From: Nemertoderma westbladi
Taxonomy: Eukaryota > Animalia > Xenacoelomorpha
Direction: 5' to 3'
Assembly (NCBI GenBank): GCA_032718475.1
Contig: JAUCBJ010001662.1
Coordinates: 1 to 45,940, forward strand
Length of the DNA stretch: 45,940 bases
Within the stretch, counting starts at the first letter, position 1. The number at the start of each line of letters is the position of its first letter. Shown in pieces: positions 6,987 to 45,940 of the stretch. The translations under genes and the position numbers were made by a program. The notes beneath the pieces are model-generated. The model was not told where the DNA came from. It saw only the letters and a list, made by a program, of their open reading frames with translations, and did not search any database.

Positions 6987-7001
6987 ATTTAAAAAATAGC
7001 T

Positions 7002-9035
7002 ATAAATAATAATAATAAACAAATTTATTTTTGTTATTGCAGGCGCCCTTAGGGGTCAGTGCGATCTTATCAGGGCGCCTGCAGCTAACTACCTAACCTA
7101 ATTAAAACAACATATACCTGTTCCATCAGTCACTTAATTAATAATAATACACTAAACAAACTGGACAAAAATACTAAAAGAGACTAGTTTTTAGTTTGTT
7201 TTTAAAGGTGTCATAGTTAATACCTCCAGTGCAGAATCTCATGTCGCTGGGTAGGGAGTTCCAGACGTGTGCTGCGTTGTAGTAGAAGGCCTTGCGCGCT
7301 TGCTCATTGACCGTATGCGGAACGTTTAGTTTGATTACGTCATTGGAGCGGAGAACACGCGAATCTGTTTGTATGTTTACATCCAGTCTCAGATATAAGG
7401 GAGCGTTCCCCGAGACACACTTGTATGTTACACAGGCTACTTTATAGTCAATTCGGGATTCAATTGGTAGCCAATGTAGTGATCTCAACATTGCTGAAGC
7501 AGAGTTGTAAACATAGCAGCCATTAATCACATTATAACGTGGAACATTAGTGATCAACCGAGCAGCGCTATTCTGCACAGTTTGTAATCGTCTCCGTACA
7601 GTTTTAGCCGATGACTTTAGGATTCCATTCGAATAATCGAGACGACTCGTTATGAAAGAGTGTGTTAAGGTTTCAAGCGAGGATCTGGGTAGATACGATC
7701 GAATTTTGTACAGGGAGCGAAGGTAGTATTTAGTTTTCGCTGCTGTACTCACAATGTGCTCTTTAAATTTTAAATGCGAATCAAAAACTACACCCAGGCA
7801 GGCACTTAACTTGGCTTGAGAAAGGAATTCTAAAACTTCGGAAATTTAAAATTTGGGAATCATCAGGAATCTTCTTGCACTGCTGGGAAGTCCCATAGAC
7901 AATTATATCTGTTTTATCAGGATTAATTCGCAAGTGATTCTTGTCCATCCAACATGCTGCAGTATGTAGTGCCACTGACAATTTATCTTTAATGGTAGAA
8001 AAATCTTGAGGTTTACCAGTTGCAAAGAATTGGGTATCATCAGCATAATTGGATGATTTGGATCCAAGCGGGCCAATACGCCAGAAAAGGTCTGTCATGT
8101 ACGCATTAAATAGGGTAGGACCAAGGATACTGCCCTGTGGAACACCCGTTTCTAGCAGTACCATATCAGACGTACTCCCTTCGATTTTTACTCGCTGGTA
8201 TCTATCATGTAGGTATGATCCCAATAATTTCAATGCAGTCCCAGAGAAACCAAATTCGGTCTCTAACTTAGATAGAAGAGTCACGTGGTTAACGGTGTCA
8301 AAAGCAGCACTTAGGTCTATATATGCACAGATAGTTATATTTTTGTTCTCCATTGCTTTCAGGAACTGACTATGTAAGAAAAGATTCACGGTTTCAGTCG
8401 AGTGATTCTGTCTGTATCCAGACTGGGAGGAGTGAAAGGCAAACTGTTGGTTGGCTCTGAACATAATCGCTTTCTCTATAACCTTTGAGATAAAACTTAG
8501 ATTACTGACTGGCCTGTAGTTATTCAAACATTCAGGATCCAGCGACGGCTTTTTCAGTAATAGCCTCACAACTGCCACTTTCAGAAATCTTTTGAATTCT
8601 CCTTTACACAAGACCTGATTCACGTAATTTGTCAGCGGCCGGATAATAATTGGTAGAACAGACTTGAACAAGGGTGTCGGTAGACAGTCGAGTTCACAAG
8701 ATGCGCTTGACATGTTTTTGATCAGTTTGGACAATTCTGCCTCTGATAGGGGTAAAAATTCCTCAAACTGCTTCTCGTAGAGTTTCGGTAAGTTTCTGCA
8801 GTCGCAATGCATGTCAAAAGATTTTACGATATTGCGAACCTTTCCAACGAAGAAATCAGAGAATTTGATCGCTAGATCTGAGCAGTTTCCCAGGGTTATA
8901 GGTAGTATTGGTGAGTTTGACTTTCCTAATAAGCGTTTGAATTGTTTCCAGAGGGCACGGGGGTTACCGTGGTTTTCCTCTATAAAATCTCTATAATATG
9001 CGCGAGTTGAGTTACGGAGAGCTTTAGCCAGTGAT
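7002..9035 (-). mobile_element. L2/CR1-group LINE, 3' part (RT and C-terminal domain), 5' side interrupted
   Basis: NYRPVSNLSFISKVIE, IDLSAAFDTVNH, GVPQGSILGP, YADD, LHWLPIESRIDYK, WNSLP. Frameshift near 7795. 3' UTR stem TGCAGGCGCCCT/AGGGCGCCTGCA (7038-7049/7072-7083) and an (ATT)n tail near 7003-7018. Confidence 0.9.
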
Positions 9036-9873
9036 AGACCCCAGATATATATTTTGCAAATCAAGAAAATTATTTCCTTCCAAATATGAAAAAATAAGAA
9101 AGCGGAAGTGCCTAAATAATGAAACATACCCGTTGCTATGGTAACTATATTGACTGTTCTAGTGGTCATAGACCTCTACTGTGTAATGAGGAACTAAGCA
9201 TATGATAGCGCATAATATGATCAAAGTTGAAGTAAACTGAACATGTTTTATTCAATATTTTGACCACATTCCAAATGTTATCGGTCACCATGGCAACAGA
9301 GACAAACTTGTATGGTTGGAAAGTAATTGTCTGGACTTGGAAACATGTAATACACTAGATCCAAAATTTAATTTTTTTTAGATAGTTCGAAACTATATTA
9401 AATTTGGCAGAATATATTTAGTGACATGTGACCATGGTTACAGGACTACAACAGGTCCATTTAAATTGGTCCACCACTAGAAATTAAGATGGCCTCAGGG
9501 ATAATATATTATAATGTTAGATGATTTTTCCCAACGGGGAACAATTATTAATCAATGGTTTTATATTTTTCGAATATTTACTGAAAATCGGCGTTTGAAA
9601 TTCATTTTTGAAACAGTTGCCATGGCAACCGGGTTTTACAAATGACGTCAATGGAATCTCTGATGCTGATATATGGGGGGTAGGTCAAGGTTAGAAGACT
9701 GTAGGTTTATTGGAAAGTGGACTCCTGTTGTCATGGTAATATGGGACCGATAAATAATGTTGCAAAGTTGGTTCCCCTTAAAAAATTAAAGGTATGGTAA
9801 TTATCTACTCCGGTGCCAATTATGGGAAGTTTGTCCAGGACGTCCACATTAACTTGCTAAGCAACCTGACTAT
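9035..9873. mobile_element. Unclassified non-coding repeat rich in RFX X-box-like palindromes, truncating the LINE
   Basis: LINE homology stops near 9035. Contains GTTGCTATGGTAAC (9132-9145), GTTGCCATGGCAAC (9616-9629) and three near matches. Boundaries are approximate. Confidence 0.45.
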
Positions 9874-11088
9874 TATTGAATTCTGCTAATGTAACATTAC
9901 CGAGCAGTTCCTTTGGGGATGAAGCCGATCTTGCCACGGAAATCACCGGAATAATATGAAATGCAGTCCACATGTTGGGTGCATACACCAGCATTTCCCT
10001 GCTGCCTAGAAACAGCCACAACATTCTGATTGTTGATCACATCAAAAAAAATGGTCGAACCTACAGTATGTTGTTCCTCAACTCGTTCAGATGTGCAAAT
10101 TCATTCTTGATCAGCACGATCTTGACGGTTTACACTCAAACATATAATGCATAAACTCGTTAAGAATTGTAGACAAATCTGGCATAGATGAAGATTGGTC
10201 TGGAGTTTCGCTCATAGTTTCAGGTTATCCTTGATCAGGCCTACCAGTAGCAGTACTCTCAAAATACTCTGAATCACTTTAACTTTCAGCTCTATGAACT
10301 GCTTTTGTTTTTTCATAGACTGTTGTGCAGCTTTGCTATTTTGCAGGTAGGGTGTAGGCCTATTTCAGTATTTCTGTATTTGACAGTTTGTAGCCCAAAG
10401 TCAGAAATCAGACTAATCTAATAATACCACTTCGCCTCCGCGCAGCGATTCACAAACTCGCAGCGCAATGTTAAGTCTGGCTTGAGATTTCACTGATATA
10501 GAAGCTATATAATATATAAACATAGTAACCAGACTGGCATTAGCAATATAATATCATAATGACTGCATGATTAGTATTACAAGTTTACAATGGCATTATA
10601 ATAATACATATAATACTATACAGTTACTGGTATCTACATACAAGCAGTACTGCCGTCTCTCTGAATTGGCATCACATCCTAATAATCATACAGTAGACGG
10701 ACCTCACAAAAAACATAAAAGATAATTTTTGAAAAATTTAGAAAGTGTACACTTTTGGTGCATGTTTGGTTAGGTGTAGTCAGGATGAAAGTTTAATGTA
10801 ATTTTTCTTGAGTTGCCTTTTTTGGGGCACTTTCTCTATCTACTTTTTAACTACTCAACCGATTTTCGTTCATAATTTTTGAAACAACTTATCGAAAAAC
10901 TGATTTCAGATTCGGAATCTTCATAAAATTTTACATCGGAAAACAAATTAGAAAATAATGTCGAAAAAAGGCGCCTTGGAATTCATTAAGATATGGAATA
11001 ATTAATAGCACCCGGTGGGGCAGTGGGATATGCCATCACTGGAACAAGTTATCGTACCACCATTGGAACATACTACCAATAAACTTAC

Positions 11089-11781
11089 CTATTTTCCTTT
11101 CTTCATCCAATGTTTTACTATAAACCTCTTTCAAGTCCATTACACTTAGAGCACAGCTGTAGTATTGAACATGTGCAACATATCCGTTTTGCATCTGGCC
11201 AATGATGAAAGGGAAGTTCGCATCTCGAAACGAACGGCCATAATTCTTAAAAGTTTCATGCCATGATTTTGGTGTCGCTTCTGTGACATTGGTATCCACT
11301 TCTTGTAAGAATAACAGGCCTTCTTTTAATATGTTATCTATTGATACAGCTACCATATACCAGGTGTTACGAAGCCGTGTTACGGACCGCACAGGTACAG
11401 GAATGCGTCCCCCATTATTTTTATCCAAATAGTACATATGATTACTAGGATGATTAAACATAAGTGTAGCACCTGTCTTTACAATATCGCGATGTTGATA
11501 CCCAAACACAATATCACCTAGCCTTGTTTCGCCAACTGTTGTGTCATCTATACCTGTATTTTTTACAAAAGCCACTATTGTGAACGTCTCAGTGGATAAT
11601 TCATGTCGATGTTCAATTGAAATGTAAGACCCATTGAAAAATGTTGCCTGATTGACGACTCCAGCTGGGCCTGTACCATACTCAACGTTTCCTCTAATTG
11701 TGCCATGGAGGTTTCCACCCGTGTCTCTGGCTCCGTGTTGCTTACTCAAAGGCCAGTATGATTCGTATTGGCAACCATCAG
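11089..11781 (-). CDS. Host-gene exon encoding a LamG/concanavalin-A-like domain
   Basis: ttgtttcag|CTGATGG...AAATAG|gtaagt; 693 nt, phase 1-1; YWPL...GNV.Y..GP.G..NQA..FNGSYI...FTIVAF...WYMVAV...GYVAHVQYY..AL. Confidence 0.88.
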
Positions 11782-12299
11782 CTGAAACAATTAACAATAA
11801 TGATAACTTTTACATAAGTAAAGTAAGCAAAAAAAATTAATAGTAAAGTGTTGTATGTTCGTGTTCGTTGTCTTTAATTAGTAATCAACAATGTTAATTC
11901 GCTAAGGTGTATAAATCAATATTTCGTCTGTCGTTTGTAATTGTAATGAAAATTCTTGAAATATATTATATTCATTTCGCATAATTTAATTATTTATAAT
12001 TTTTTTAATTTAAATCGTATAATTTCTTTTCCACACAATTTCTTTTCCACACATCAAATTTTGCACTTTTAGATAAAATTTAATAGAAGAAATTTAACAT
12101 TTCAGGTGAATATCAAATATAAAAGGATCTTCACTGGAATTTTTTGAGAAGCAACAGATGTTGCCAGTAGCAGATGCTAGAAGTATTGACAACAAGATAA
12201 TATTGGTATTGAAATAATAATATATAATAATATAATATGGTATTGAAAACAATTAAAATGATATTAACTGAGTTGACAGTCTATTGTAGCATGTAGCTT

Positions 12300-15237
12300 A
12301 TACCAGTTCTTCTATGAGTATTTCTTTTAATGCTTTTGAAAAAGATTGTTTTGATTTTTTATTTATTATTTCTATGGGTAGTGAGTTCCAGATTATTGCC
12401 CCATGGTATTTTAAAGATTTTTGAGTTTGCTGTAGTCTGGTGCGATGTATGAAATAGTTACGGATAGACGTAGAACGTGTGATGTGGGAGTGAATGAGAC
12501 TTGTTGGTTTAAACTAAACAGCGATATAATGTAATCTTGTATTTTGTGGTTAATAACTTCCCACGTTATAGCGTTAATAACTTCCCACGTTATAGCGTTA
12601 ATAACTTCCCACGAGTGAATATATATATGGCAATGCGAATAATAATACAGAACTATTCCTAGATTGGGCAGCTGAAAACTGATTCTGTGTACCATCGACG
12701 TTCTTAAGTAAGAAATGTAGTAAACGCAGTTCATGGTTCCATGCAGCTACAAAGAGATGGTATATACAGGATAACTTCCTAGTATCGCAGGCCAATAGGA
12801 GTCTCGTGATTGATGCGGAATCATTAAACAATTGTTATCACATATCCGATCACAAACCAATAACACTACGAGTGCAGCTAAAATGGTTTAGACGAACACT
12901 ACCTAATACCAAACAACCTCCACTTGTAGAGTTAACTCAAGTAAAAGACCCTCAGCTATGTAAACAATTTGTTAGCAATTTCGCACGAGTAGAAATATCC
13001 GATCCATCCGATATTGATTGCGTGAACAACGAATTCTCTGATTGTATACTCAGCCTCTCTAAAGTATTCACACCTAGCAAATCTATGAACTCACGTAGAC
13101 CATGGCTATCCCCTGATTATTTCAATATTCACGAGAAAATCCGTGCTAAACAGACTCGAACCCGTCAACAGCGACGCCTCCTCCGACAAGCAGAACACAT
13201 CGCGCGTCGGGATAAACGCCGCTGGCTGGATGAACAGTCACAGATAGCTCGCGAGGCGATTAATAGGGGTGATCTGGGCGGTTTCCACCGCCAAAGAAGT
13301 CAACTAGCTCAGGGTCCTGCACCAGCCAATATCATCCATCCCTTAACAAATGATGGTAAACTCGTTGGTGATCTTAAGAAAATTGCTGAGCTACATGCTG
13401 AATACTTAGAAGGCAAGTTTACAGCTGAACCTGTCCCTGATCTTCTACTACCACCGGCACACACACCACAAGTTCCTGTAGATACATGACCTCCTAGGAC
13501 CGCAGAAGTCGAGGCAATCATAAAGTCACTCCCATCCGGTAAAGCCCCTGGTGAGGATAACATCACTAATGACCTACTAAAGGCAGGTGGATCCGCAGTA
13601 ATTCTGTGGTTATTAACACTGCTTAGCCTAATCCACTCAACTGGGAAGTTTCCATTGCATTGGGGGCGTACTATAATTACAGAAGCCAAAAAAGACTGGT
13701 TGATCCCTAAGTCGAACCGTCCAATAGCACTAATGTTAGCAGCATCCAAGATATGGGAGCGCTGGGTTATGTCTAGGATCCAGCCCTGGTATGAGTCCAT
13801 TCTCGATAACTGTCAAGTTGGCTTCCGTAAAGCACGGCAACTATCAGAACATGTGCTCTCAGTAAAACTCTTGGGTCAGCAGGCCCGTGCTGCGGGTGAG
13901 ACAATTTATGTTTCATATGTAGACCTAACTGGTGCCTACGATTTTGTACCCAGGGAACTAGTTTTTAGAATTCTGCTGCATGAGGGTCTTCCGTCAATTT
14001 ATGTAAATATGTTCTGTGCATTCTATGCCATAAACACATTTTGTGTACGCATTGCTGGGACCCTTAGTTCGTTCTATAGAACTGGGCGTGGGGTCTTACA
14101 AGGATCTGTGTGTAGCCCTTTGCTATTTAACATTTTCTTGAACTGCATTATTGCCGAGGTAGCTAGAAGATGTAAAGTTAAAGGAGTTTTTCGTCGTCGC
14201 TTTCGCTTTGCATTGCTGAGATGGCCCTCCATCGGCGCTGAGTTACTCCCTTTCTACATACGATGGCTGTTATACGCCGACGATATAGCGTTGCTGTGTG
14301 AAACAAAAGATGACTTAATAGAAGTACTAACGTGCCTAGATTCTGTGTTATCTGAATACCAAATGATATTGTCTGTTGACAAATCCGAATGGTCTGTATA
14401 TGGTCATAATGCAGAAACAATTGATAAGTCACCTATTACTATCCCTAGTGGAATAATTAAATTCGCTTCCCAGTTTCGCTACCTTGGATGCGAGCTACCA
14501 ACAAACTTAGATGACATGGCTGATGGAACTTCCCGCATTGCTAAGGCAAATCAGTCCTTTGGACAACATAGACAAATCCTATACAACCGATCACTGTTAT
14601 ACAAGCAGAGATACTACCTATTTCTATCACTTGTGATGCCGGTAGCCCTCCATGGTGCCGATACGCATACTCTGAGCCTTCTGAGAAAGTACCTTGTATT
14701 TGAGAATCGCTGTATGAGACGGATCCTGGGTGTCCGCCTCATAGATCGGGTACCTATTGCGACTCTTCGGCAGAGATGCGGTGTATCCCTGTCAATAGTT
14801 CAACGCATCAGGATACGGCGCATGAACCTAATAGGCCATGTGCTCAGACATGACATCCCCTGTCGAGATCTACTCTTCGCCCGGGCGAATGGTAATAAAC
14901 TAGGTAGACACCTCTGGTATATACGTGACGCCAGCAAGGATATGTCTGATACTATCGGGTCCCACAGTCAGTCACTCATAGACAATCGATCTAAATTCCG
15001 GTCTGCAGTACGGAACTGGGGAACTAAATTGGACTCAGAGGGGCAACGTTTCACCTGCCCCCATTGCAACAAAAAATATACTTCAGTATTATGGTTCAAC
15101 CGTCATTGTGCGAAGTGCAACTAGCTAGACCCTAACTCATTCGTGGGTGTGTAGGGAATATTATTATTATTATTAACTTCCCACGTAAGTTTGGCCGTTT
15201 CCAGTTCTTGCAGTTTTTCTATAGGTAAAGTAGAATG
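12300..15237 (-). mobile_element. Old L2/CR1-group LINE 3' end, split by the RTE insertion (pieces about 12300-12565 and 15174-15237)
   Basis: Removing the RTE joins ...LPIEKLQELETAKLTWEVINHKIQDYIISLF...YHGAIIWNSLPIEI, a typical CR1/L2 C-terminus. Confidence 0.65.
12614..15173 (+). mobile_element. 5'-truncated RTE-group LINE (end of APE endonuclease, RT, C-terminal zinc finger)
   Basis: WFH...SDH endonuclease end, GKAPGED, QVGFR, VDLTGAYD, GVLQGSVCSPLLF, LLYADD, FRYLG, CPHCNKKY...H...C. One in-frame TGA at 13487-13489. 3' hairpin at 15130-15156, (ATT)n tail, TSD TAACTTCCCACG (12602-12613 / 15174-15185). Confidence 0.92.
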
Positions 15238-18900: not shown

Positions 18901-20861
18901 CCGACTTTGCTAAGCTGTGCACAACGAAAGTTACTACAGTTATTCATTAATTAATCAATAATTATTGCTGTTCAATCTATTCAAGGAAATTCGTTGAGAC
19001 ATAATTATCAGATTCTGCATTTTTAAACTTCTGTTTCTCGCTAAGTTCCTTTGTTTCGGCCTATATGCTATATTATTTTTTTTTAGAAAGATAACTCTTT
19101 AATTAGGGCCATTATGTCAATTATTTTCTTAAAAATAACTCAAAAATATCCCTAGTGTTATAAAATGCTATGGCTACTAAATTTCAAATTTTTTAATATC
19201 TATAGTAAACAAGTTTTTGAAATATAAATTAAACTTATATTTGTATTTTAGATAGATGATTTAGTTATTATGGTCCATTTTGCATATCATTGCGGTGAAT
19301 CAACCTGTTATTTCTATTTGCAAGTAAAGTTATTGTTGTTAAGGGTTGCTAAGTGATCTACATTAAATTTAGAGTACTTTTATTAGTATTTTAAATAGAA
19401 GTTGACAACTACCTGTTAATTGCTTTAGGCCTGGCAGCTGTTATATAAACCACGCCATATGAGTGGAGCGTTTTCTGTGTGCTGGTCCAATGAGGAGCGA
19501 GCAGCAATGCCCACTAAGCATTACCCGTAGTAATACATTGCAGCTAACCTCAGCTCAATATATTAGTTTTGGGGCCCAAATCCCATTATTATCTCAACTC
19601 AATTCTAACTTGATTCTTCCTTAGTTAATTTCTTGTCATTTATATTAGTTTTGAATTTGAGCAATATGTTTTGCGTATATTAGTATAGAAATTGTCCTTG
19701 TAATAATATGTCCTAAAATATATTATATTTGAAAGTCGGTTTAATGTTTTAATGGATTAATGTTTTGGAAACGCTACAGCTTACAGCGGCCTTGTTGGGG
19801 CGTATAGGGTAATTAGGCGAAGGGATGAGACGCCTCAACGCACATTGGAAATAGTCAAGGGAAGTATGGGGCTTATTTTGGGCTAACAGATCGGTTTTGG
19901 GGGGCTAAATGGGTTTCAATACGTCCTAAAGATATAGTACTGCTTCATAGGTAACAGTATAATAAATTGGGAAGGAATGAATAAATTCAGTTGTATTTCC
20001 CGTTTTGAACCTGACTTGTTTGTAAATAAATTATATACCGCAAGTCAATCGGAGATTAAACTAAATTGGGGGGATACGCGAGTAAAAATAGGTCTTGCTT
20101 GTGTACGTTTTCGGGGCAAATGTTTTGGGTTAGTTAGGTATCATCCTTCATTGGTCCATTTAGAAAACTACGGGATATTTGTAATATGTGCCAAGTTTAG
20201 CCATTGGGCATAACCTATAGATAAGAAAATTGTCCTTAGATAATTTGTACTATTCTAGAACGAGAGTGTAGTGTTACAGTACAGATCAGTCATTCTAGAA
20301 CTGTAAAATCGGTTTTCTAAGGAGGGATGGAATCCTGGTGAGTCTCAAACATTTCTGGCCTATTTTAAATTTAGGTTTATATTTTAATGCGGTAACAATC
20401 TGTAGTCAGGATTTTTTGGCTTATAAATCAAATATATATTTCGCATCTACACTTACTGTAAATTATAAAGGTGATAGTAACAGGTGCTATTACATTGAAG
20501 TCCTGGACCAGCGTTTTCCTTTGCTTGCGATAGATAATTAGTTTTCCCTGGCGGGGGAGTTTTTATTTCGAAATAAATTATATATTTTGCTGGAGGAATT
20601 TGAGATCGAAATTTTAGTTTATACTAAGATTGTGGATCGAAGATTCGTTGGATATTATTTGGTTCCTACGAATTCTACTGTACAAGTGTCCTATCAACAA
20701 CTTGGTTTGATGTGAGTGACTTTCGGACTAAACTGAAATTAGAAATTCTACACCCCAAATGTTGACGACCCCCTCCCTCCTCTAGCACATGCACCTCTAG
20801 CAGTAATTTCTTTCACAATTTATTTATTCGAATTCATTTAGAAACTGGATCATAAACTCAC

Positions 20862-21572
20862 CATTTTCCTGTTCAAAAGCCAGACCCTCCTCATAAATGT
20901 CATTCAGATGTGTCAGAGTATAATAACAGCCGTAATATCGGACATGGGCGACATGCCCGAGCTGTTTTCTTGAATCCTTCTCATCAAATCCTATGTTGAA
21001 ATTGCTGGTCCTATCTGGAGGACATCTGCCAGTAAAATGAGAATCAAACAGTTTCGTTGTTACTACATTTGTCCCTACAATTCGACTATAAAGAAGTGTT
21101 TTTCCAGTCGCAGCATTGACCCCCACTGCAATCATGTACCACGTGCCAGTAGTGAGTGCATTATCTGCTGTCATTGATTGCGCGCCACCACAGCTGTACC
21201 ATAGGGAAGTCGGTTGAAGATAGTTCCATAAATGTGTACCTCTTTCGTTCTGACCACCATAACCTAATATAGGGCCAGCTTGGTTGCCTGGCTTAAAAAA
21301 TGCAACTATGGTGAAGGTGTTGTCCATTAACTGGTTAGCCGCATGTGGGAATGAAATGTATCCATTGGCAAATTCCATGGCTTGATTAACGATGCCACTT
21401 GGTCCAGGGACATATCTTACAGTGCCCTTTACGTTGTTAGTGTTTCCTGGGTGGTTATCATCTTGCGATTGGTAGGAAAGTGGTTTAGCAATTTCCAGTA
21501 TGTCATTTCCGACATAGTTGTTGTTCAATGGCCACCATGATCCATGGGGCACATAGTTTACACTACATGGAT
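20862..21572 (-). CDS. Host-gene exon encoding a LamG/concanavalin-A-like domain, paralogous to 11089-11781
   Basis: ttattatttcag|ATCCATGT...AAAATG|gtgagt; 711 nt, phase 1-1; WWPLN...GTVRY..GPSG..NQA..F.NGYI...FTIVAF...WYMIAV...GHVAHVRYY. Confidence 0.88.
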
Positions 21573-21586
21573 CTGAAATAATAAAA

Positions 21587-21976
21587 AATATGATATAAAA
21601 AGTTGAGTCGAAATTGTAGCTTTTTGCGATTGGGATAAAAGTGGTTTAGCAATTTCCAATATACCATTTCCGACATAGTTGTTGTTCAATGACCACCATG
21701 ATCCATGGGGCACATAGTTTACACAACATGGATGGTGGGGGGGGGGGGGGGGGGGGGGGACTGGACGCAATACAAATTCATCCCTCTCAAAGGGAAATTC
21801 GACGCAAATGACAGCTGATTATTCTCAAAAATAAAACTGTAACCTGTTTTATTGTGCTTAGTTTATTTTTTTTGGTTCAAATAACGTGCCACTTTAACCT
21901 GCTCCTTCCCTAAATTGAGAATTTAACATTGAGGCGGGATATTAATTCGCCAAGGCCGGATTTGCGTCCAGTTTCC

Positions 21977-23027: not shown

Positions 23028-26000
23028 ATGAGTACCGGAACCGCTGCCCCTGCCACTAGGGTTAAAGATAAAACTCTAGGAGGGAAGAAAGATGAAACAA
23101 TACATTACTGTGGTGGGAAAAGCAGAAAGTGTGTGAATAAAATATCAAACAATAATTTGCGATTTATGCAAACAATTCTGGTGTGTTAAATGTGTTAATG
23201 ACGATTATCCGAATTCTTTACCCGATTCTTTGTACAATAACCTACCAGATGAGTTTGAGTGGAGTTGTTCCGAATGTTCTACATTAAGTCTACCACAATG
23301 TTTAATAGTAAATGAAGTTTTTGATGAGAAAAGTTTACGTAAATTTGGATGTGAAATCGAATTTTCCGATGAGTTTAATAGATTATTAATCCATAAAAGG
23401 CAAGGAAAAAATAAAAAGCGCACTGAGCCCTTAACCTTAAGTGATAACGAGTATTGTAATGAGAACAGTGCGAAACTGAATGACAACAGTGATAAGCGAC
23501 AGAATGATGAAATTATTAAATTATTATCAAACCAATTACATCAACAAATGCTATTTATGGATCAGATGAGGCGAGACCAAATATTAGCTCAAGAAATACA
23601 TAGAGAAGAATTGAAACGAATGATAGGTTCACAAGAGATTGATCGTGAGCATACCCGAGAAATAATGAGAGAAATGATGAGCCAAAATTCGAGTAGCGAA
23701 ATGAGGCATAGTGATATGCGATTTGGACACCAAGGGGTGAGTGTGCCTAGTTCATCTACGAGGTCAAGAATTAAACTTCCGAAAATTGATTTACCTATAT
23801 TTTATGGTGATCAGTTGAAATGGCTAGGCTGGTGGACTTCATTTAAAACAGCAATACATGAACATTCTGAGTTATCAGGTGGTGAAAAACTAACTTATTT
23901 ACGCATGAGCTGTAAAGGAAAGGCATTTGCAGCGATTGAAGGTTTTGAAGTTACTGAATCAAATTACAATAAGGCTATAGATAAACTTACTGAACAATTT
24001 GGTAGACTGGAGGTTCAAATACGAGCTCATTATGACTGTTTATACTCCATACAGTGTCAGAGCAACCCTTCTACTAAACAGTTACGAAAATTTACTGACA
24101 CGATTGAACTACACTTACAACAAATGGAGTCCCTTGGGGAAGATGTCGAGCAACGGTCACTATTGTCTTTCCTTTTAGGGAAAGTGCCAAGAGATATAAT
24201 GGAAAAGTTAAGTAAACAAAAGGACAGGAAGGTTGAATGGTCTATGGAAAAATTCCGAGAGGCCATAAATGAGCTAATTCTACTCCGAGAGGATTTACTT
24301 CTGCAAAGTGGTATTTCAAAAACAACCGAGAGCAATTATGATTCAACAGGGCATAGTCATAATTATCATGATAACAGTGATATTAGATATGGCCGCAGTG
24401 ACAGCCGGAGTAAGTATAATGATAGGAGAGATGCTAGGCATATAGGTTATTATAAACGAAATAATTCAGGAAATTATCTATCGGAACGAAGTGTTCCATC
24501 CACAACAGAAACATTAATAACTAATTCTGTATGGTCTAAAACAAACAATAGTTGCCCATACTGCCAAGGTGAGCATTGGGCAGATGAGTGTCAACAGTAT
24601 AGTACTGTTGATGAACGTAAGGAGAAACTGGGATCAAACTGCCATCTGTGTTTAGGTAAGGGACACTTCAGACATCAGTGTAGAAAGCATTCTAGATGTT
24701 GGTATTGTGGGATGAATAACCATCATCATAGGAGTCTTTGTATAAAGCGAACAGAGAAACAAAATGACTCAATGCATAATAGTAGTAATAAGATAAAAAC
24801 AAATACAAATGATGCATCAAAAATAAAACCTAAATATGGAGGTCAACCACATACTTTAGTTACTGAAAGTAAAGAATGTGATGTAGCAATGAAAACGGCC
24901 ATTTCTACAGTTTTTAATCCTATGAATGGCAATGAGGCAGAGACGATAATATTTTTGGATTCAGGAAGCAAAAGAAGTTACATATCAGAAAGTTTAAGAC
25001 GAAAACTAAAAATAACTAACACTGAACGATATGAAACATTTTTATTGTGTACATTTGGGTCTGAGAGAATAAAGACTCAAATACTTCCAATTATTAAAAT
25101 GGGAATTATACCAAAATTCGGTCATACACAAACTATAGAATTTGCTGTAGTGCCACAGATAACAGGAACTGTTGGGCGTTTCGCCATCGATGAAGTTTTA
25201 GAAGCTGAATTAAAACAAAAGGTCAACTACCTAGCTGATAACTCACGAGATAGAAATTATCAAATGGAAGTTTTGATTGGAAATGATTATTATGATGAGT
25301 TTATAAACACAAAACGAATTCAAGTTAATGATGGTTTGTGCCTTCTAGAATCTAAATTTGGTTGGATCTTATCAGGTCGAGTGGAAGTTATTAATTTACA
25401 GAAGGATAACCAGTCAATGATGACATTACTATGTCATAACTCAATACTAAATGACCAATGTGAATATGTGGATAAGGTATTAGAGAAACCTAATATTGAA
25501 CTGTTCTGGAACCTAGAAACCCTTGGAATAAAGGAATCATGTGTAGCCAATGATGATGATAAGGCACTAAGGCAATTTAACAACTCTATAATCTTTGAAA
25601 ATGGACGTTTTGTTACTTGGCCATGGCGAGAAGATTTTGCAAGAGATCTACCCGACAACTATGAATTATGCCTAGGTCAATTAAAATCTGTACATAAAAA
25701 CGACTATTGAATGATAGAAAATTATTAGCTGATTATGATAATATTATAAAAGATCAAATATCGGAAGGGATTGTTGAAGAAGTTGAAATGAAAAAGGAAA
25801 ATTCTGCAAATTTGAAACATTATATCCCACATCATGCTGTGGTTAAACCAGATAAGGAAACCACAAAGGTACGAATTGTTTACAATGCAAGTGCTAAAAC
25901 AAAAAAGGGAAATAAGAGCCTCAATGAGTGCCTTTATTCAGGACCAGTTTTATTAGAAAACTTATGTGGTGTACTTTTACGATTTCGGATAAAACCAATT

Positions 26001-29000
26001 GCTATATTAGCAGATATAGAAAAGGCATTTTTGCAGGTTGGACTGTAAGTTCCAGATAGGGATGTGACGAGATTTATATGGTTGAAAGACTCAAATAGAA
26101 CATGTACTTCAGATAATATAATGGTCTTACGATTTACGAGAGTTCCATTTGGAGTTGTTACAAGCTTGTTTCTATTATTGGCTGTAATAATATTCCACCT
26201 GAATACATTGGGAACTAAAGTTGCACTGCAAATTAAAGATAAAACTTATATGCAGATAACATTGCTACTGGGGTAGATAGTGTTAAGGAAGCGAAGGAGT
26301 TTTATTCTGAAGCAAAGAATATATTTAAAGAAGCATCTATGAATTTACGAAGTTGGCAATCCAATAGCAAAGAATTAAGAGACATTGTGAATCCAGAAGA
26401 TCGATCGATTGCTGAAATTATCAAAGTGTTAGGCCTATGTTGGAATGTCAATGATGATACATTTTCAATATCAAAATTTAAAATGTTGAAACCAGATGAG
26501 TGGACGAAAAGGTTGGCTTGGAAAGCACATTCTAGTGTATTTGACCCTCTTGGATTTTTTGCACCAGTATTGCTTCGAACAAAACTGTTTCTACAAAGGT
26601 TATGGAAAGAAAAACTTGATTGGGACGCACGATTTTCGATTGCACAGTCAGTAGAGTGGAATAAATTACTAGATAGTATAGTTAATATCAATGCGGTAAA
26701 ACTAAATAGAAGTTTCTGTGCTGCTGTTGCAAATAACTACCGATTGATTATATGGATTTGGAGATGCTTCTGCCCAGGCTTATGCAACATGTGTATTTCT
26801 GGTGAAAGAATATGCAAATGAATGTAACAAATTATGTTATGAACCACTGTTGGTGTTTGCTAAAAGTCGACTGATAGAACCAAAGAAACACCAATCAACA
26901 AAACAGCAACCATCAATTCCAAGACTTGAACTTCTTGGCATGTGGATAACATCAAATGCTGTAACTTTCTGCAAAAATCAACTTCGAAATATCCAGATTG
27001 TTGATACTATTATATTTTCTGACTCACTATGTGTACTTTATTGGCTGAAATCTAAGAAGCAAATAGGGGCATTTGTAGATAGACGACTGCATGATATTCG
27101 AAATACTGGTTACGAATTCAGATATGTTATTTCAAAGGACAACCCTTCAGATATTGCAAGTCGAGGTTGTTCCATTGACGAATTGATTGACAATAAGATT
27201 TGGTGGAAGGGGCCAGAGTGGCTTTCATGTGACCCGAATGAGTGGGAGTCAACAAAACTTCCTCCAATAACACCCGAGTATATTAAACTATGTGATGAGG
27301 CGTCAAAACCGGCAAAGGAGTTATACAGTATGTCATTACTTGCCCATCCTCAGAAAAAAACAAGAATATAGAGAGAACACTGAATGGAAATTTTTAGAAG
27401 AATTTGGAAACAAATATTCAAATCTGTCAAATGCGATTCGGGTAATGGTTTACATTTTACGGTTCATTACTCCAAAATCTAAACGTTTGCAGATAAATAA
27501 TGATCTTGTTATGAACTGTATTGTTTCTGAAGAAATTAAATTAGCAGAAACAAAACTAATACATCTTATACAAATTCAACATTTCGGCGACATGATACAT
27601 GCAATTAACCATAATGAGACGAACGAGTTGAAGCGAGCATTAGGTTGTTTTATTGATGATGATGATATTATTCGATGCAGGGGATGATTCACTTATGCTG
27701 AACCATTAAATGGTTTCCCAATATTACTCCCGAAAAGATCATGGTTTACAAAATTATTGGTAGAAAGAGTACATAAATTAAACTTCCATGTTGGTGTATC
27801 ACATACTTTGGCTTTAGTTAGAAGACATTTTTGGATAATACATGGAAGATCTGTTGTTCGATCAATATTATTGAAATGTATAATGTGTAAAAAGGTAGAT
27901 GGGCAATCATATAAACTTCCTCCGATAGCTCCATTGCCAAAGGAGCATATTATGAGATCACTTCCCTTTGAATATTCTGGATTGGATTATATGGGACCAC
28001 TACTCGGAAGAAACGATGCAAACGAAGTCCAAAAGATTTGGATTTGTCTGTTTACATGCATGGCTACTCGAGGTGTTAGATTGGAATTAGTTCGAGACCA
28101 AGGAACTGAAGAGTTTTTATTTTGTTTTAGGCGATTTAAAGCGAGATCAGGGAAGATATCAATGTTCATATCTGATAATGCTTCTCAATTTAAACTGGCA
28201 CGATCTGTATTGGAAGCTGTGTTAAGTGACGGCATAAAGTGGCGATTTATCCCTGAAATGTCCCCTTGGATGGGTGGCTTTTACGAAAGGCTTATTGGCT
28301 TGATAAAAAAGATCTTAAAGAAATTACTACGAAAGACGTGCTTGACTATAAGGCAACTTGAATGCCTGTTATTAGAAATTGAACCTATAATAAATAGTCG
28401 ACCTCTGCTATATGTAGGAAATGATATAGACTCAGGGTATACTTTATGTCCAAATGATTTCTTAGGTGCATTTTTAGAATGTGGATCCTATGAAGATGTA
28501 TTAAGAGATTCAAATTATCAACCAGCCATTCCGACACTTAAGGAAAGTTTGATTAGTGCATGGACTCATGGAAAGGAACATATTGATTCTGTCTGGAAAG
28601 CTTTCTATGACGAATATTTACATAGTCTCCAAGAGCGAACACAAACTGACCATAAGGGTAGAAAGGGACAGTTGGTAGATAAACCACAAATTGGAGATAT
28701 TGTTTTGATAAAGGATGATGGGCCACGAGGACGTTGGAAACTGGCAGTTATTGATTCTTTGAACACCAGTAATGATGAAGAAGTTAGAAGAGCTGTTGTG
28801 AGATTCATTATCGAGAATAAAAGGAAGGTAAAAGTAAGTCGAGTAACTCGACCAATTAACATGTTGTTTCCATTGGAATTAAACGAGAGATGTATTGAAC
28901 CAAACTCTGTGATGAATAAGAATACTAACTGTTCTGATTCCCGCATTTCAAAACATACCACTAATGACCGTGAATGTCAACGACCTAAAAGAAAAGCTGC

Positions 29001-29040
29001 GGAGAGAGCTAAGAAATTAATAGCGGAAGGATTGTGTTAG
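23028..29040 (+). pseudogene. Disrupted BEL/Pao gag-pol: PHD finger, gag, three Cys/His knuckles, aspartic protease, RT, RNase H, integrase
   Basis: ICDLCKQFWCVKC...WSCSEC, KLPKIDLPIFYG, CPYC..EH..C / CHLC..GH..C / CWYC..HH..LC, FLDSGSKRSYI, YIPHHAV, ADIEKAFLQV, FDPLG, IPRLEL, NPSDIASRG, GLDYMGP, SDNASQF, GFYERLI. Several frameshifts, and stops at 26046-26048 and 27685-27687. Confidence 0.93.
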
Positions 29041-42050: not shown

Positions 42051-42929
42051 GGTTCGGGATTCTACGGGTTTATATCGTTATATATATATCTATATATATA
42101 TATATATATTTATATCGTTATATCGTTATATCGTTTATATCGCGATATATCGTTACGTTTATATCGTTACACAATTGTTACGTTTATTTATGTTACGCCT
42201 ACTAGAGGGAGCACAACAGATGTTAGATGTGAGGAGACTTAGAGGTTTCGTCGGCTTTTGGCTCCACTTCGCTCTAAACTCCTACCCGTAGCCCAAGATT
42301 CAGGGTTTGCTGCAATTTCACACAAAATTTCCAAAAATGTGCCGATAAAAAATAATTCAGGCAAACTGGCTGTGAGTCTAAAATACTCATTTTTTAATCC
42401 TAAACTACTTCCCATAAAAATAATCCAGTCAAGAATTAGTCAAAGTAAAATTTAGTAGACACGACTATTGGAAACAACGCCTTATTATATTTTTGAAAAA
42501 TTGGAAGGCTCACGAGACTTCCATCCACTCTTGTCCCACCCCCCCCCCCCCCCCCCCTTTTTTTTTAGTCCCACCCAACCATATCTTAGAATGCGTCCAC
42601 TGGAGAATCAATTTTCCTAAAAAATTATAATCCAAATGGATTGTCTAAAATTTTTAAAAAATTTGTCTCACTTGTGGGTTCCAAGTGGAATTCCATTCCT
42701 TTGTACACACAAAACCGCTCCTATATGATACATAAGGGTACTACCCTCATCTTCACATATAAAGACAATGGAATTCCACCGCTGTCTTTAACCTACAGTG
42801 TACAGGAATATGGAAGGGTTATGTAGCGACCATCAAAGGTCCCACATCTCTACTTACGTGGTTTGCTTGGAGATTTATAGTATCCAGTCTCGTTTCGAGT
42901 CTCCTCAAGGAGTACAAGATGTTGTATGG

Positions 42930-44204
42930 GTCTGTCTACAGTACGTCCAGAATTGTACATACAGTCACATTTCGCATTACACCATCTGATGATGAGTGTG
43001 TGGTCAAAATGACTCAAGTCAACCAAAACTGACTTTTCAAGTTTTCTCTTCTAAAAGTACATGGTCTTAAAGAGCGGATGGTAAGATACCAAGTGGTTCT
43101 GGTTGAAATAGAGGCCAAATAATATTTCTGCCATATTTCCCAAAACTTTTTGGCTAGCAGTTGAGTGATTTTCCACACTTTTTTACTGTAACTATCACTG
43201 TCTACTGTTATAGAGGTAGGTCACAGTGTAGTCGGCTCCTGCATAAGCAGGTGCACTGGTGTCAAAGCATACTGAGATTGTTTGTCGTCGGGAACCAAAG
43301 CGATTGGTCTAGTGTTTAGAATCACCTCCTCGATTTCGATCAACAAAGTGGTCAATTGGTCGTCTGTCAATATGCGTTGCACAGGTATTACTTTTACTAA
43401 GGCCATTTTGATAGATCCAATCAGCCTTTCCCAGACTCCGCCTCTCCATGGACTATCTGAAGGGTTGAAGTTCCAGACAATATTGTGGGGACGAAGTTCA
43501 TCTGAAATATGATTGTGATCTAACTTTTTTAAGGCTCTGGCAATTTCGTTCCGTGCACCTAAAAGTTTGTACCTTTGTCGCAATGTATGGATTTAACTAG
43601 TCCACATCTGGCAATAAATCGCCGCAAAGCCAGGATAAAAGCGTTGGTGGATAAATCTGTTACGCGTTCAATGTGAACTGCTCTACTGACCATGCAGGTA
43701 AAGATCAATCCCCAATGTTTCACCTGTACGCGTCCGGCTGTACGGGTCTAAACGCTTGTAGTCTAGCTAGTGGTAGTTCACTCATTTCTTGGCATCCTAT
43801 CCTAGCATGTACCTTCTTACAGATGATACAGTTGCGCGTCACTGAACTCAAAGCCTTACTGGGTCTAATAAATACAAACCTTGAATGCAAGTGAGATAGA
43901 CAGTGGTGTCTTCCTACGTGTTTAAGTCATATATGTGTGTCCAGTATCATAGCACGCTGTAATTCATGATGTTGCGGTATAATGATACCTAAAGTCAACG
44001 TTTTGGAGCCCGGACTTATGACAAAGTAAGCCTTTGTATATTATCGAACTCCAACTCAGTATTGGTGAAGACTTAATCTGTTTACCTTGATTGATTGATG
44101 TGAATTCTCGTGCGAAATATCGCAATTCATAATTTCGAATAGTATCAATCTCACAACTATCCATCTTAGTCAAGGTTAGTCTACATGGAAAGTCACGTTT
44201 GCCT
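42930..44204 (-). mobile_element. Decayed BEL/Pao integrase fragment
   Basis: FILALRRF, WNFNPSDSPWRGGVWERLIGSIK, LIEIE..LNTRPI...ALTPVHLL. Cut off at about 44204 by the tandem array. Confidence 0.85.
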
Positions 44205-44558
44205 TTATCAGATGTTGACAACTACGACTTTAGAGGGATTGTAATATTCATATTAAAACAATAAAATAGGACATGGGGTCTATTCCCTCAGATACTACCT
44301 AGCATTTAGGGCCACTTGGGCCACTGTTAGTACTCAGGCACTAGGCCCATCAAAAAACACAAAACAAAATACCAAATCGATTTTAGTGCTACATAAACCC
44401 AACCCAACTACCACAAGAAAAATTGCACCAAACCATACAGTAACTACAGGTTCCGGTAAGTATTGCACAAAATAGGCTATCCCATAAATTACGAAAAATA
44501 TAGGACATCTTGTCCGCCGAAAAAGGTAAGTCTAAGTAATAAATTTTATAGAAATAAA

Positions 44559-44630
44559 AGGGTTTCGGAGATTTAAACACTGAACCCTGGGATTCGTGGT
44601 TCTCCTCATCAGCAGTGTGCCACGAACCCC
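44559..44630 (-). ncRNA. Hammerhead ribozyme, non-circularly permuted (copy 1)
   Basis: Minus strand GGGGUUCGUGG-C-ACACUG-CUGAUGA-GGAGA-A-CCACGAAUCCC-AGGG-UU-CAGUGU-UUAAA-UCUCC-GAAA-CCCU. Invariant core CUGAUGA/GAAA/NUH with perfect stems I (6 bp), II (5 bp), III (4 bp + A-U) and an extra 11-bp helix. Confidence 0.8.
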
Positions 44631-45236
44631 ACCTCTACCCTAACAAAACTGCACCACTAAATGAAGACAATGACCAATAAATTAGAAATCCTACCGTACC
44701 ACCGAACAGAGTTGAAACCACCCACCCCCAATGTATGTTACCATCAGCCCCAAATGCATAAACATGATTTCCCAACTGAATGCAACCAACCCCAATTAGC
44801 ACCTACCGGTATGTACAGATATATGATCAGATTTTTAAACAAAATTGCGCAGATGTCAGGAAATACCCCTTTAAATATATAATTATCAGATGTTGACAAC
44901 TACGACTTTAGAGGGATTGTAATATTCATATTAAAACAATAAAATAGGACATGGGGTCTATTCCCTCAGATACTACCTAGCATTTAGGGCCACTTGGGCC
45001 ACTGTTAGTACTCAGGCACTAGGCCCATCAAAAAACACAAAACAAAATACCAAATCGATTTTAGTGCTACATAAACCCAACCCAACTACCACAAGAAAAA
45101 TTGCACCAAACCATACAGTAACTACAGGTTCCGGTAAGTATTGCACGAAATAGGCTATCCCATAAATTACGAAAAATATAGGACATCTTGTCCGCCGAAA
45201 AAGGTAAGTCTAAGTAATAAATTTTATAAAAATAAA

Positions 45237-45308
45237 AGGGTTTCGGAGATTTAAACACTGAACCCTGGGATTCGTGGTTCTCCTCATCAGCAGTGTGCCA
45301 CGAACCCC
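45237..45308 (-). ncRNA. Hammerhead ribozyme, non-circularly permuted (copy 2)
   Basis: Identical to 44559-44630, offset by 678 nt. Confidence 0.8.
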
Positions 45309-45916
45309 ACCTCTACCCTAACAAAACTGCACCACTAAATGAAGACAATGACCAATAAATTAGAAATCCTACCGTACCACCGAACAGAGTTGAAACCACC
45401 CACCCCCAATGAATGTTACCATCAGCCCCAAATGCATAAACATGATTTCCCAACTGAATGCAACCAACCCCAATTAGCACCTACCGGTATGTACAGATAT
45501 ATGATCAGATTTTTAAACAAAATTGCGCAGATGTCAGGAAATACCCCTTTAAATATATAATTATCAGATGTTGACAACTACGACTTTAGAGGGATTGTAA
45601 TATTCATATTAAAACAATAAAATAGGACATGGGGTCTATTCCCTCAGATACTACCTAGCATTTAGGGCCACTTGGGCCACTGTTAGTACTCAGGCACTAG
45701 GCCCATCAAAAACACAAAACAAAATACCAAATCGATTTTAGTGCTACATAAACCCAACCCAACTACCACAAGAAAAATTGCACCAAACCATACAGTAACT
45801 ACAGGTTCCGGTAAGTATTGCACGAAATAGGCTATCCCATAAATTACGAAAAATATAGGACATCTTGTCCGCCGAAAAAGGTATGTCTAAGTAATAAATT
45901 ATTTTATAAAAATAAA

Positions 45917-45940
45917 AGGGTTTCGGAGATTTAAACACTG
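45917..45940 (-). ncRNA. 3' portion of a third hammerhead copy, cut by the window edge
   Basis: Minus strand CAGUGU-UUAAA-UCUCC-GAAA-CCCU. Confidence 0.65.

Follow-up and report, generated by a model that had tools for sequence, protein, structure and literature searches.

The window, the whole 45,940-nucleotide contig JAUCBJ010001662.1 from Nemertoderma westbladi, ends in a tandem array (44205..45940) whose ribozyme sense strand is the minus strand and which holds 2.56 head-to-tail copies of a 678-bp unit, >99% alike. The three copies (unit 1, 44205-44882; unit 2, 44883-45560; and unit 3, a partial copy of 380 bp, 45561-45940) share one phase and are spaced 678 and 678/680 bp apart. Three substitutions separate unit 1 from unit 2, and unit 3 differs from unit 2 by a 1-nt deletion, a 3-nt insertion and one substitution. 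Array homology begins abruptly at 44205, the preceding base already being different, and further copies of the unit were not found elsewhere in the window (best blastn E-value 0.30). Tandem Repeats Finder left the array out of its output because its longest period is 500. The unit has a GC content of 38.9% and is without an LTR. Read circularly, it has a longest stop-free run of 81 codons, none of its four longest ORFs matched Pfam at E≤1, and no ORF in it was credible; ARAGORN found no tRNA-like module. An earlier sequence-only reading of this locus, which had described nearly identical 678-bp head-to-tail units without a credible protein ORF, is borne out on both points.

That reading had also described an abrupt insertion into a decayed BEL/Pao integrase region, and this agrees with the flank of the array, where an integrase remnant (43386..43986, minus strand; Pfam and tblastx) precedes the edge at 44205. 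Pfam matches to Integrase_H2C2 and rve are weak (43926-43559, minus strand), and tblastx homology to a better-kept BEL element of the same window runs from 43986 to 43386; with 43986 as the tblastx limit, the last detectable BEL homology therefore lies ~220 bp from the array start. The left flank of the array (...CACGTTTGCCT) is not (TA)n, the unit junction carries ATATATAA, and the nearest (TA)n tract is at 42079-42115. As (TA)n is described as the usual target of Naiads (Craig et al., Mol Biol Evol 2021, PMC8557442), an insertion of this Naiad type was not seen at the left junction of the array. Within the window we found no Penelope-like ORF (GIY-YIG plus Penelope-type RT). Both RT ORFs of the window are LINE-like, with LINE-1 ORF2p and R2 as closest relatives, and the unit showed no similarity to either.

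One hammerhead core is present on the minus strand of each complete unit (45290-45242 and 44612-44564), as had been noticed from the letters, with CUGAUGA at 45290-45284 and 44612-44606 and GAA at 45244-45242 and 44566-44564. In the 5′ to 3′ direction of this strand, the CUGAUGA block is followed by the cleavage-site block and then by the GAAA block, giving the order C-S-G. The complete domain of unit 2 (45237..45308, minus strand, 72 nt), delimited by folding and by comparison by eye with a published alignment, consists of a joining-helix 5′ arm (45308-45298), stem I strand 2.x (45296-45291), CUGAUGA, stem II strand 10.x (45283-45279), a joining-helix 3′ arm (45277-45267), stem III strand 16.x (45266-45262), U17 (45261), stem I strand 1.x (45260-45255), a 5-nt linker UUAAA (45254-45250), stem II strand 11.x (45249-45245), GAA and stem III strand 15.x (45241-45237). 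The domain of unit 1 (44559..44630, minus strand) is identical in sequence, and unit 3 carries a partial hammerhead (45917..45940, minus strand) made up of stem I strand 1.x, linker, stem II strand 11.x, GAA and stem III strand 15.x, which is the portion 3′ of the cut only. By the hammerhead rule of a cut 3′ of position 17, cleavage is predicted between U17 (45261) and C1.1 (45260) in unit 2 (45260..45261, minus strand) and at 44583/44582 in unit 1 (minus strand); the window itself stops at the predicted cut in unit 3.

All core nucleotides are in place (C3 U4 G5 A6 N7 G8 A9, G12 A13 A14, the pair A15.1-U16.1 formed by A45241 with U45262, and an H17 that is not G, here U), and stems I, II and III comprise 6, 5 and 5 contiguous pairs with no mismatch. 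Stems I and II are tied together by the 11-bp joining helix (45308-45298 with 45277-45267), which has a duplex energy of -18.7 kcal/mol, the other three helices having -6.1, -5.6 and -5.8 kcal/mol. The minimum free energy fold of an 81-nt domain (-28.6 kcal/mol, z -2.09) comprises the joining helix and stem III, the nested part of the structure.

Type CSG was described as a non-circular permutation of the hammerhead by Eckert, Friedrich, Weinberg and Weinberg (Nucleic Acids Res 2023, PMC10085705), where it is recognized by blocks C (stem I strand-CUGAnGA-stem II strand), S (stem III strand-H17-stem I strand) and G (stem II strand-GAAA-stem III strand) in 5′-3′ order with no insertions inside the blocks. 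Blocks C (45296-45279), S (45266-45255) and G (45249-45237) follow exactly this arrangement in unit 2, as do their counterparts in unit 1; judged on sequence, the unit hammerhead is a type-CSG non-circular permutation. The sequence-only reading had called it a permuted hammerhead, unusual for a retrozyme, and the permutation is real in its C-S-G order, although the arrangement had already been named. The orders of the classic types I, II and III (CGS, GSC or SCG in one domain) were not found in the unit, the classic order arising solely between neighbouring units. Several other readings of the core were considered and rejected: a type I reading, in which stem III fails; a type III reading with the upstream GGGGUU/C, in which stem I has only 2 pairs; and the 11-bp hairpin as a competitor of the active fold, since this hairpin is the joining helix of the published type (PMC10085705). 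Rfam reported no hammerhead at gathering score or at E≤10 (the sole match being a chance rimP, E=8), as expected because the type-CSG fold is knotted.

A scan for hammerheads in any block order over the whole window and both strands matched the array only. Among dinucleotide shuffles of 44.9 kb, stems of 6/5/5 pairs arose in 1 of 300 and stems of 5/4/4 pairs in 10 of 300, with the joining helix not required and with thresholds that had been set after the motif was seen. Matches to the bare type-CSG pattern had the stems in 0 of 127 natural cases (76 from metagenomes, 48 from prokaryote genomes and 3 viral; the published CSG contigs are absent from these 127 loci), compared to both complete copies in the window. 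A pattern specific to the window motif had no matches in metagenome and viral contigs.

In print, type CSG comprises CSG-1 and CSG-2, near-identical sequences on two short soil-metagenome contigs to which no host or biological setting is assigned (PMC10085705). Their cis-acting constructs of 77-78 nt cleave in vitro at the predicted site, with kobs of 0.004 and 0.026 per min, and their authors consider the evidence for biological relevance to be weaker for the slow type CSG than for type SGC (PMC10085705). Cleavage is established for CSG-1 and CSG-2 and is predicted for the window motif. We compared the window motif to Supplementary Figure 10 and the Stockholm file of that paper by eye; the comparisons with published sequences made here and below cover three to nine sequences. 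The linker UUAAA (5 nt) is identical to that of CSG-2, and a helix that connects stem I to stem II is present in both; the helix has 11 bp in the window motif versus 8 bp in the published CSG and, unlike the published helix, is flanked on either side by a single spacer base. Furthermore, the linker before stem III measures 0-1 nt instead of 2, position 17 is U instead of the C of CSG-1 and CSG-2, and the stem sequences all differ from those published. Relative to CSG-1, 9 of the 16 pairs in stems I-III are changed on both sides and none is broken, a count made by eye on very few sequences. The contexts also differ, the motif occurring here once per unit of a high-copy 678-bp animal repeat and there on short soil-metagenome contigs.

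A second comparison concerns the Naiads, which are described as lacking canonical hammerheads, some of them being flagged ‘HHR_half_core’ with core halves 35-50 nt apart (PMC8557442). In the supplement of that paper, six nematode Naiad consensus 3′ ends could be read by eye as type CSG, a fold on which the paper itself is silent (Naiad_Hpol; the four ends that precede the entries Naiad_Hcon, Naiad_Hpol, Naiad-2_Nbra and Naiad-3_Nbra; and a sixth close to part 13), and two passages with the CUGACGAG word (parts 17 and 19) could not be read in this way. The six motifs have, by eye, joining helices of 7-13 bp and stems I, II and III of 5-6, 4-5 and 6-12 bp, and their H17 is C or U, with the U of Naiad_Hpol matching the window motif. 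Both the type-CSG order and the joining helix are therefore common to the window motif and these 3′ ends as read by eye, and the core halves of the window motif, 39 nt apart, fall inside the 35-50 nt of Naiads. The likeness concerns the core layout; the Naiad motif lies ~100-140 nt from the end of a GIY-YIG plus RT element of 3.4-4.4 kb, whereas the window unit is a 678-bp tandem repeat with no GIY-YIG/RT ORF near. Because the same layout is read at Naiad 3′ ends, we favour a Penelope-like link over a separate, independent class of element as the more likely.

Metazoan non-LTR retrozymes are described as carrying type I hammerheads in highly self-paired RNAs of ~170-400 nt that have been shown as circles, with units of 150-450 bp (Cervera and de la Pena 2020, PMC7229834); a recent preprint gives units of 51-972 bp (Li, Clavereau and Pollet 2026, 10.64898/2026.07.22.740005). 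The 678-bp unit is above the former range and inside the latter. As in these retrozymes, the window holds short tandem units that lie head-to-tail, lack ORFs and carry one hammerhead apiece, with GC <50%, many copies and no LTR, and a dependence on Penelope-like elements, as proposed below, would likewise be common to both. Two features differ from the retrozymes so described. The hammerhead in each unit is of type CSG instead of type I, and the unit RNA is not a stable, highly self-paired molecule, since the 678-nt circular minus strand folds at -176.3 kcal/mol compared to -172.7 on average for shuffles (z -0.58), the plus strand giving z +0.44. On the same z of -0.58 against shuffles, a viroid-like compact fold of the 678-nt RNA was rejected. 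The retrozyme interpretation of the sequence-only reading is supported in part, by the ORF-less tandem units and the one permuted minus-strand hammerhead in each complete unit.

We propose that the unit encodes a minus-strand type-CSG hammerhead whose predicted U45261/C45260 cut would release 678-nt monomers, and that we are likely dealing with a retrozyme-like element that encodes no protein and depends on Penelope-like (Naiad-type) elements, a reading to which we assign a probability of roughly 60%. By analogy to known systems, the minus-strand transcript would self-cleave in cis in every unit, as CSG-1 and CSG-2 do in vitro, leaving monomers with 5′-OH and 2′,3′-cyclic phosphate ends that may be circularised by tRNA ligase, as in described retrozymes. 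A Penelope-like reverse transcriptase would then copy RNA longer than one unit with a ribozyme-made 5′ end, which would explain why the array, read as RNA, opens precisely at the cut: position 45940, where the window stops, is C1.1 and directly follows the predicted cut, although the window end is possibly only a contig end. Several observations speak against this reading: Rfam reports no hammerhead, position 17 is U where CSG-1 and CSG-2 have C, the published type-CSG ribozymes are slow, the circular unit RNA folds no better than shuffles, contig ends do not accumulate at the cut, both RT ORFs of the window are LINE-like and the left junction lies outside (TA)n. A broader proposal, which we hold tentatively and at somewhat less than even odds, is that type CSG is the working ribozyme of Naiad-type elements and their ORF-less tandem derivatives in animals, with the window array as a DNA copy of RNA cut in vivo.

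DNA runs of three studies contain the unit at very high depth, together with its head-to-tail junction and many different flanks. This rules out a single-locus satellite or assembly artefact, one of the outcomes that the sequence-only reading had named as a refutation; numerous single-contig flanks fall at different phases in runs of all three studies. In one run (X1), 636 contigs match the unit, and summed word depths range from 5,000 to 112,000, versus 13-33 for contigs >1 kb with a partial match only. Contigs of 1-1.5 kb match only 45208-45300, the ribozyme module, at ~87% identity; the module is therefore common to other repeats. Copies of the unit within the genome barely vary over the hammerhead in the DNA runs: across 45237-45296, the only variant at ≥1% of depth in any run is 45244 C>T (G12 to A), at 1.8% in run X4.

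These data also bear on the strongest alternative, an ordinary satellite spread and kept uniform at the DNA level by unequal exchange and gene conversion, in which the hammerhead only trims transcripts or is a recent relic that plays no part in copying. Such trimming is familiar from newt satellite 2, whose tandem units of a few hundred bp each carry one classic (type I-like), unknotted hammerhead, and from cave-cricket pDo500. The latter (PMC2837043) resembles the window repeat in having few-hundred-bp tandem units with one hammerhead per unit in transcripts, its hammerhead being classic (type I-like) and unknotted, unlike the window motif. Consistent with a satellite, about half of the X1 contigs (303 of 636) are at least 99% identical, and the head-to-tail junction in run X2 is nearly as deep (2,937) as the unit (3,300-10,000), so that most copies sit in arrays. 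The unremarkable folding of the unit RNA fits as well, as does the observation that none of the runs recorded as RNA contains the unit. A further run, X5 (RNA by guess and under another organism label), from which we draw no conclusion, gave one 219-nt contig at depth 2.2 across the unit junction and none on the ribozyme. Nor do array ends pile up at the cut: among 19 of 57 rows of contig loose ends, 1 of 19 lies at the site and the others are scattered over 45233-45339. In favour of the proposed reading, one X4 contig leaves the unit directly after ...AAACACTG, at the predicted cut; its 22-nt flank matched nothing in the window. One X2/X4 contig stops 4 nt beyond the predicted cut. Against the satellite stand the shortness of the array (2.56 units), its abrupt edge and position inside a retrotransposon remnant, the many single-contig flanks at different phases in three studies, the sharing of the ribozyme module with other repeats and the same ribozyme layout as read by eye at Naiad 3′ ends (PMC8557442). 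We therefore regard an ordinary satellite as unlikely.

Alternatively, the array could be a pseudo-LTR or partial tandem of an autonomous Naiad-type element with its ORF just past 45940. Penelope-like elements are described as inserting in partial tandems, with hammerheads located in their pseudo-LTRs (PMC8557442), the type-CSG layout is read by eye at Naiad consensus 3′ ends, and the window stops inside the repeat, all of which would suit this arrangement. It is nevertheless improbable, as two complete units without an ORF stand in succession at a period of 678 bp, the unit resembles neither of the LINE-like RT ORFs of the window, and the unit-to-unit junction is so common in the DNA runs that a unit is usually bordered by a further unit and not by an ORF.

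A further possibility is that the motif needs two adjacent units to act, its C and G blocks pairing with the S block of the next unit in a classic, unknotted type I-like or III-like junction that would leave monomers and circles immune. With classic topology, the core does form perfect 6/5/5 pairing to the site one unit away (678 nt, in either the upstream or the downstream direction), but a loop of >600 nt would compete poorly with a site 12 nt away, and the 11-bp joining helix and 5-nt linker are features of the published type CSG, which acts in cis within 77-78 nt (PMC10085705); we consider action between units alone highly improbable. Finally, a motif that resembles a ribozyme by chance, or one produced by misassembly, for which the lack of an Rfam match and the spotting of the motif by eye in a single window out of very many might speak, is discounted almost entirely by the counts in shuffles (1 of 300, the joining helix not even required) and natural pattern matches (0 of 127), by the extra 11-bp helix at the position required by the published type, and by the occurrence of both unit and junction in the DNA runs from three studies.

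The window motif is a third, strongly diverged example of type CSG in which, as far as the comparison by eye goes, every helix is kept through changed sequence. It thereby provides the type with a host, a setting in a genome and a plausible role, the cutting of repeat transcripts to unit length. The Naiad comparison suggests that knotted hammerheads may be present in a large group of animal retroelements that are reported to lack hammerheads; if true, type CSG would fill the ‘missing hammerhead’ of Naiads. It further suggests that classic descriptors (Rfam, RNAmotif) systematically miss knotted hammerheads.

Depth in the DNA runs additionally marks a sub-segment of the unit (44929..45020, plus strand; also 44251-44342 and 45607-45697) that is 2-10 times deeper than the remaining unit. 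Its left flanks are diverse at 44928-44933, and A-rich tails of variable length follow after 45021; the sub-segment may be a short repeat in its own right, more abundant than the unit that encloses it.

The 678-bp repeat forms a tandem array of three in-register copies at 44205-45940 (spacings 678 and 678/680 bp), in which unit 1 (44205-44882) and unit 2 (44883-45560) are three substitutions apart and the partial third unit (45561-45940, 380 bp) carries a 1-nt deletion, a 3-nt insertion and one substitution. The array has a sharp left edge at 44205, beyond which lie minus-strand BEL/Pao integrase remnants recognized through weak Pfam matches (43926-43559) and through tblastx homology (43986 to 43386) to a better-kept BEL element at 23137-29040. 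No unit-like sequence was found elsewhere in the window (best blastn E-value 0.30), and the array is absent from Tandem Repeats Finder output solely because the period limit was 500. Unit G+C is 38.9%, the longest open frame of the unit read as a circle spans 81 codons, and its four longest ORFs returned no Pfam match at E≤1. The sequence-only reading, which had described a near-identical head-to-tail array lacking a credible protein ORF and abruptly edged within a decayed BEL/Pao integrase region, is confirmed.

On the minus strand, each complete unit contains CUGAUGA followed 39 nt downstream by GAAAC (unit 2 domain, 45308-45237). At gathering score, Rfam finds nothing anywhere in the window, and in 44000-45940 it finds no hammerhead at E≤10 either. 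Using a custom hammerhead scan in which the cleavage-site strand was free to fall anywhere within 700 nt, we found this strand between the two core halves, so that the three helices cross each other; the predicted hammerhead is none of types I, II and III. Eckert, Friedrich, Weinberg and Weinberg 2023 (PMC10085705) distinguish three hammerhead blocks, with CUGAnGA and strands of stems I and II in block C, the cleavage site and strands of stems III and I in block S, and GAAA and strands of stems II and III in block G; in these terms the classic hammerheads are CGS, GSC and SCG. Among the non-circular permutations treated there, type SGC has many metatranscriptome examples, type GCS is doubtful, and type CSG comprises two unique soil-metagenome DNA sequences, both of which were shown to cleave themselves at the expected bond in vitro, with kobs of 0.004 and 0.026 per min. 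The window order is C-S-G. In the published type-CSG alignment, stems I and II are also linked through a fourth helix, whose strands are the 5′ flank and the stretch directly after the block C stem II strand (PMC10085705). An 11-pair hairpin of GGGGUUCGUGG (45308-45298) with CCACGAAUCCC (45277-45267), at -18.7 kcal/mol, equals this joining helix, and its consideration as a competitor of the active fold was dropped. The minimum-free-energy fold of the 81-nt domain consists of the joining helix and stem III, the nested part of the structure (-28.6 kcal/mol, z -2.09). By every criterion of block order, core nucleotides and helices, the motif qualifies as a true hammerhead of type CSG with predicted catalysis, and the earlier proposal of one permuted hammerhead per unit holds for each complete unit.

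A by-eye comparison with the published type-CSG alignment showed the same joining of stems I and II by a fourth helix, stems I, II and III of equal length (6, 5 and 5), the identical extended core words CUGAUGAG and CGAAAC and, as in the published sequence CSG-2, a 5-nt linker, UUAAA, between the stem I and stem II strands. In contrast to the other published sequence, CSG-1, 9 of the 16 window stem pairs are altered on both sides and none is broken. Further differences from the published type are one spacer base on each side of the joining helix, 0-1 rather than 2 nt before stem III, and U rather than C at position 17. At this position of the hammerhead, U is a permitted base. In dinucleotide shuffles (44.9 kb) with thresholds set after the motif had been noticed, its strength (6/5/5 pairs) was reached in 1 of 300 and 5/4/4 pairs in 10 of 300. 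As a natural-DNA control, the sequence pattern without stems (core plus G, 20-34 nt, UUAAW, 4 nt, CGAAAC) was sought in three collections and found at 127 loci (76 in metagenomes, 48 in prokaryote genomes and 3 in viruses), none of which has the stems in register, whereas both complete window copies have them. By sequence, the window hammerhead brings the very rare type CSG to three members; it is diverged from the other two and gives the type an animal host and a repeat context.

The unit occurs in public DNA runs of three studies, all under one organism label. In run X1, 636 contigs match one unit (303 at 99% identity or more, 203 at 95-99%, 93 at 90-95% and 37 below 90%), with summed word depths of 5,000-112,000; 229 contigs match in X2 and 31 in X3. 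The head-to-tail junction has a depth of 2,937 in X2, with two bases changed, and contigs above 1 kb with a partial unit match have depths of 13-33. If the latter approximates the single-copy level, copy number would be in the hundreds to thousands, depth not being copy number. Loose ends with differing sequences occur at many phases of the unit, several of them joining the repeat to its own opposite strand; the 678-bp family is therefore abundant and mostly tandem, with many different borders, which rules out a single-locus satellite or assembly artefact. Several 1-1.5 kb contigs of low depth (13-24) in X1, X2 and a further run, X4, match only the ribozyme domain at 45208-45300, at ~87% identity, and so, judged by match extent and identity, the module is common to other repeat families of the genome in a diverged copy. 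Within the core domain, the only variant at 1% of depth or more in any run is G12 to A (1.8% in X4). A ~92-bp stretch at 44929-45020 (also 44251-44342 and 45607-45697) is 2-10 times deeper than the rest of the unit in all three DNA runs. To its left the sequences are diverse, with loose ends at 44928-44933, and past 45021 come A-rich tails that vary. The stretch resembles the 3′ end of another, commoner SINE- or LINE-tail-like repeat on the plus strand, opposite the ribozyme.

The unit is probably tied to Naiad-type Penelope-like elements. Craig et al. 2021 (PMC8557442) describe Naiads as lacking canonical hammerheads and flag some as 'HHR_half_core', with core halves 35-50 nt apart; the window halves, 39 nt apart, fall within this range. 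Inspecting supplementary consensus sequences of that paper by eye, we found the full type-CSG layout at six nematode Naiad consensus 3′ ends (Naiad_Hpol; those printed before the headers Naiad_Hcon, Naiad_Hpol, Naiad-2_Nbra and Naiad-3_Nbra; and one near part 13), with a joining helix of 7-13 pairs, stem I of 5-6, stem II of 4-5, stem III of 6-12 and C or U at H17. Two further passages (parts 17 and 19) showed no such fit. No published report of type-CSG hammerheads at Naiad 3′ ends was found, most subscription journals lying outside the search, and, by titles and abstract openings, none of the six listed of eight papers pairing non-circular permutation with hammerheads concerned animal elements. 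Soil invertebrates would be a fitting origin for the soil DNA that gave CSG-1 and CSG-2. Naiads usually target (TA)n, and a (TA)n run with 8-bp TATATCGT-type repeats lies at 42069-42154, ~2 kb from the array and out of contact with it.

The Li et al. 2026 preprint argues that animal retrozymes derive from Penelope-like pseudo-LTRs and reports consensus lengths of 51-972 bp, a range that 678 bp therefore fits. The sequence-only reading of the array as a retrozyme is partly supported: each complete unit has one full type-CSG domain on the minus strand, without an ORF, in tandem and at high copy number. Against the full reading, the 678-nt circle shows no unusual degree of self-pairing (z -0.58), the left flank of the array is not (TA)n, no RNA run is known to contain the unit, and a Penelope-like ORF is absent within the window. 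A minus-strand transcript would form the joining helix first, the site and GAAA strands would then dock, and the folded RNA would self-cut between U45261 and C45260, multimers yielding 678-nt monomers with 5′-OH and cyclic-phosphate ends. These may be circularised by tRNA ligase by analogy with type I retrozymes, for which such closure is shown (PMC7229834), and new copies would be made by a Penelope-like reverse transcriptase.

The last window base, 45940, corresponds to 45260 (C1.1), the first base past the predicted cut, a coincidence with chance odds of ~1 in 678. In the RNA sense the array as present in the window therefore begins exactly at the cut, and after two further complete units it terminates at 44205, a layout that would be the product expected if an RNA of more than unit length, trimmed by the ribozyme, had been reverse transcribed. 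Base 45940 may be a real end of the array or just the point at which the contig stops; in the DNA runs no pile of contig ends falls at the cut, and among the loose ends listed one X4 contig departs from the unit directly after ...AAACACTG and the others are scattered.

The window as a whole is animal DNA rich in transposons; it contains two LINE-like reverse transcriptase ORFs as well as gag, protease and integrase domains of BEL/Pao type. The plus-strand BEL/Pao element at 23137-29040 is fairly well preserved, with domains in several ORFs: DUF1759 and DUF1758 in one of 857 codons, Peptidase_A17 in two adjoining ORFs, and Integrase_H2C2 with DUF5641 in one of 450 codons. A second, decayed element has Peptidase_A17 at 36011-35469 (minus strand). 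The reverse transcriptase ORFs at 7781-9175 (minus; RVT_1, E 3e-28) and 13490-15124 (plus; RVT_1, E 5e-30), whose nearest solved structures are LINE-1 ORF2p and R2, are LINE-like and not Penelope-like. Two minus-strand ORFs, at 11036-11809 (below the Pfam threshold) and 20824-21645 (just over it), match Laminin_G_3 (concanavalin A-like) weakly to moderately; they could be fragments of host genes or cargo carried by transposons.
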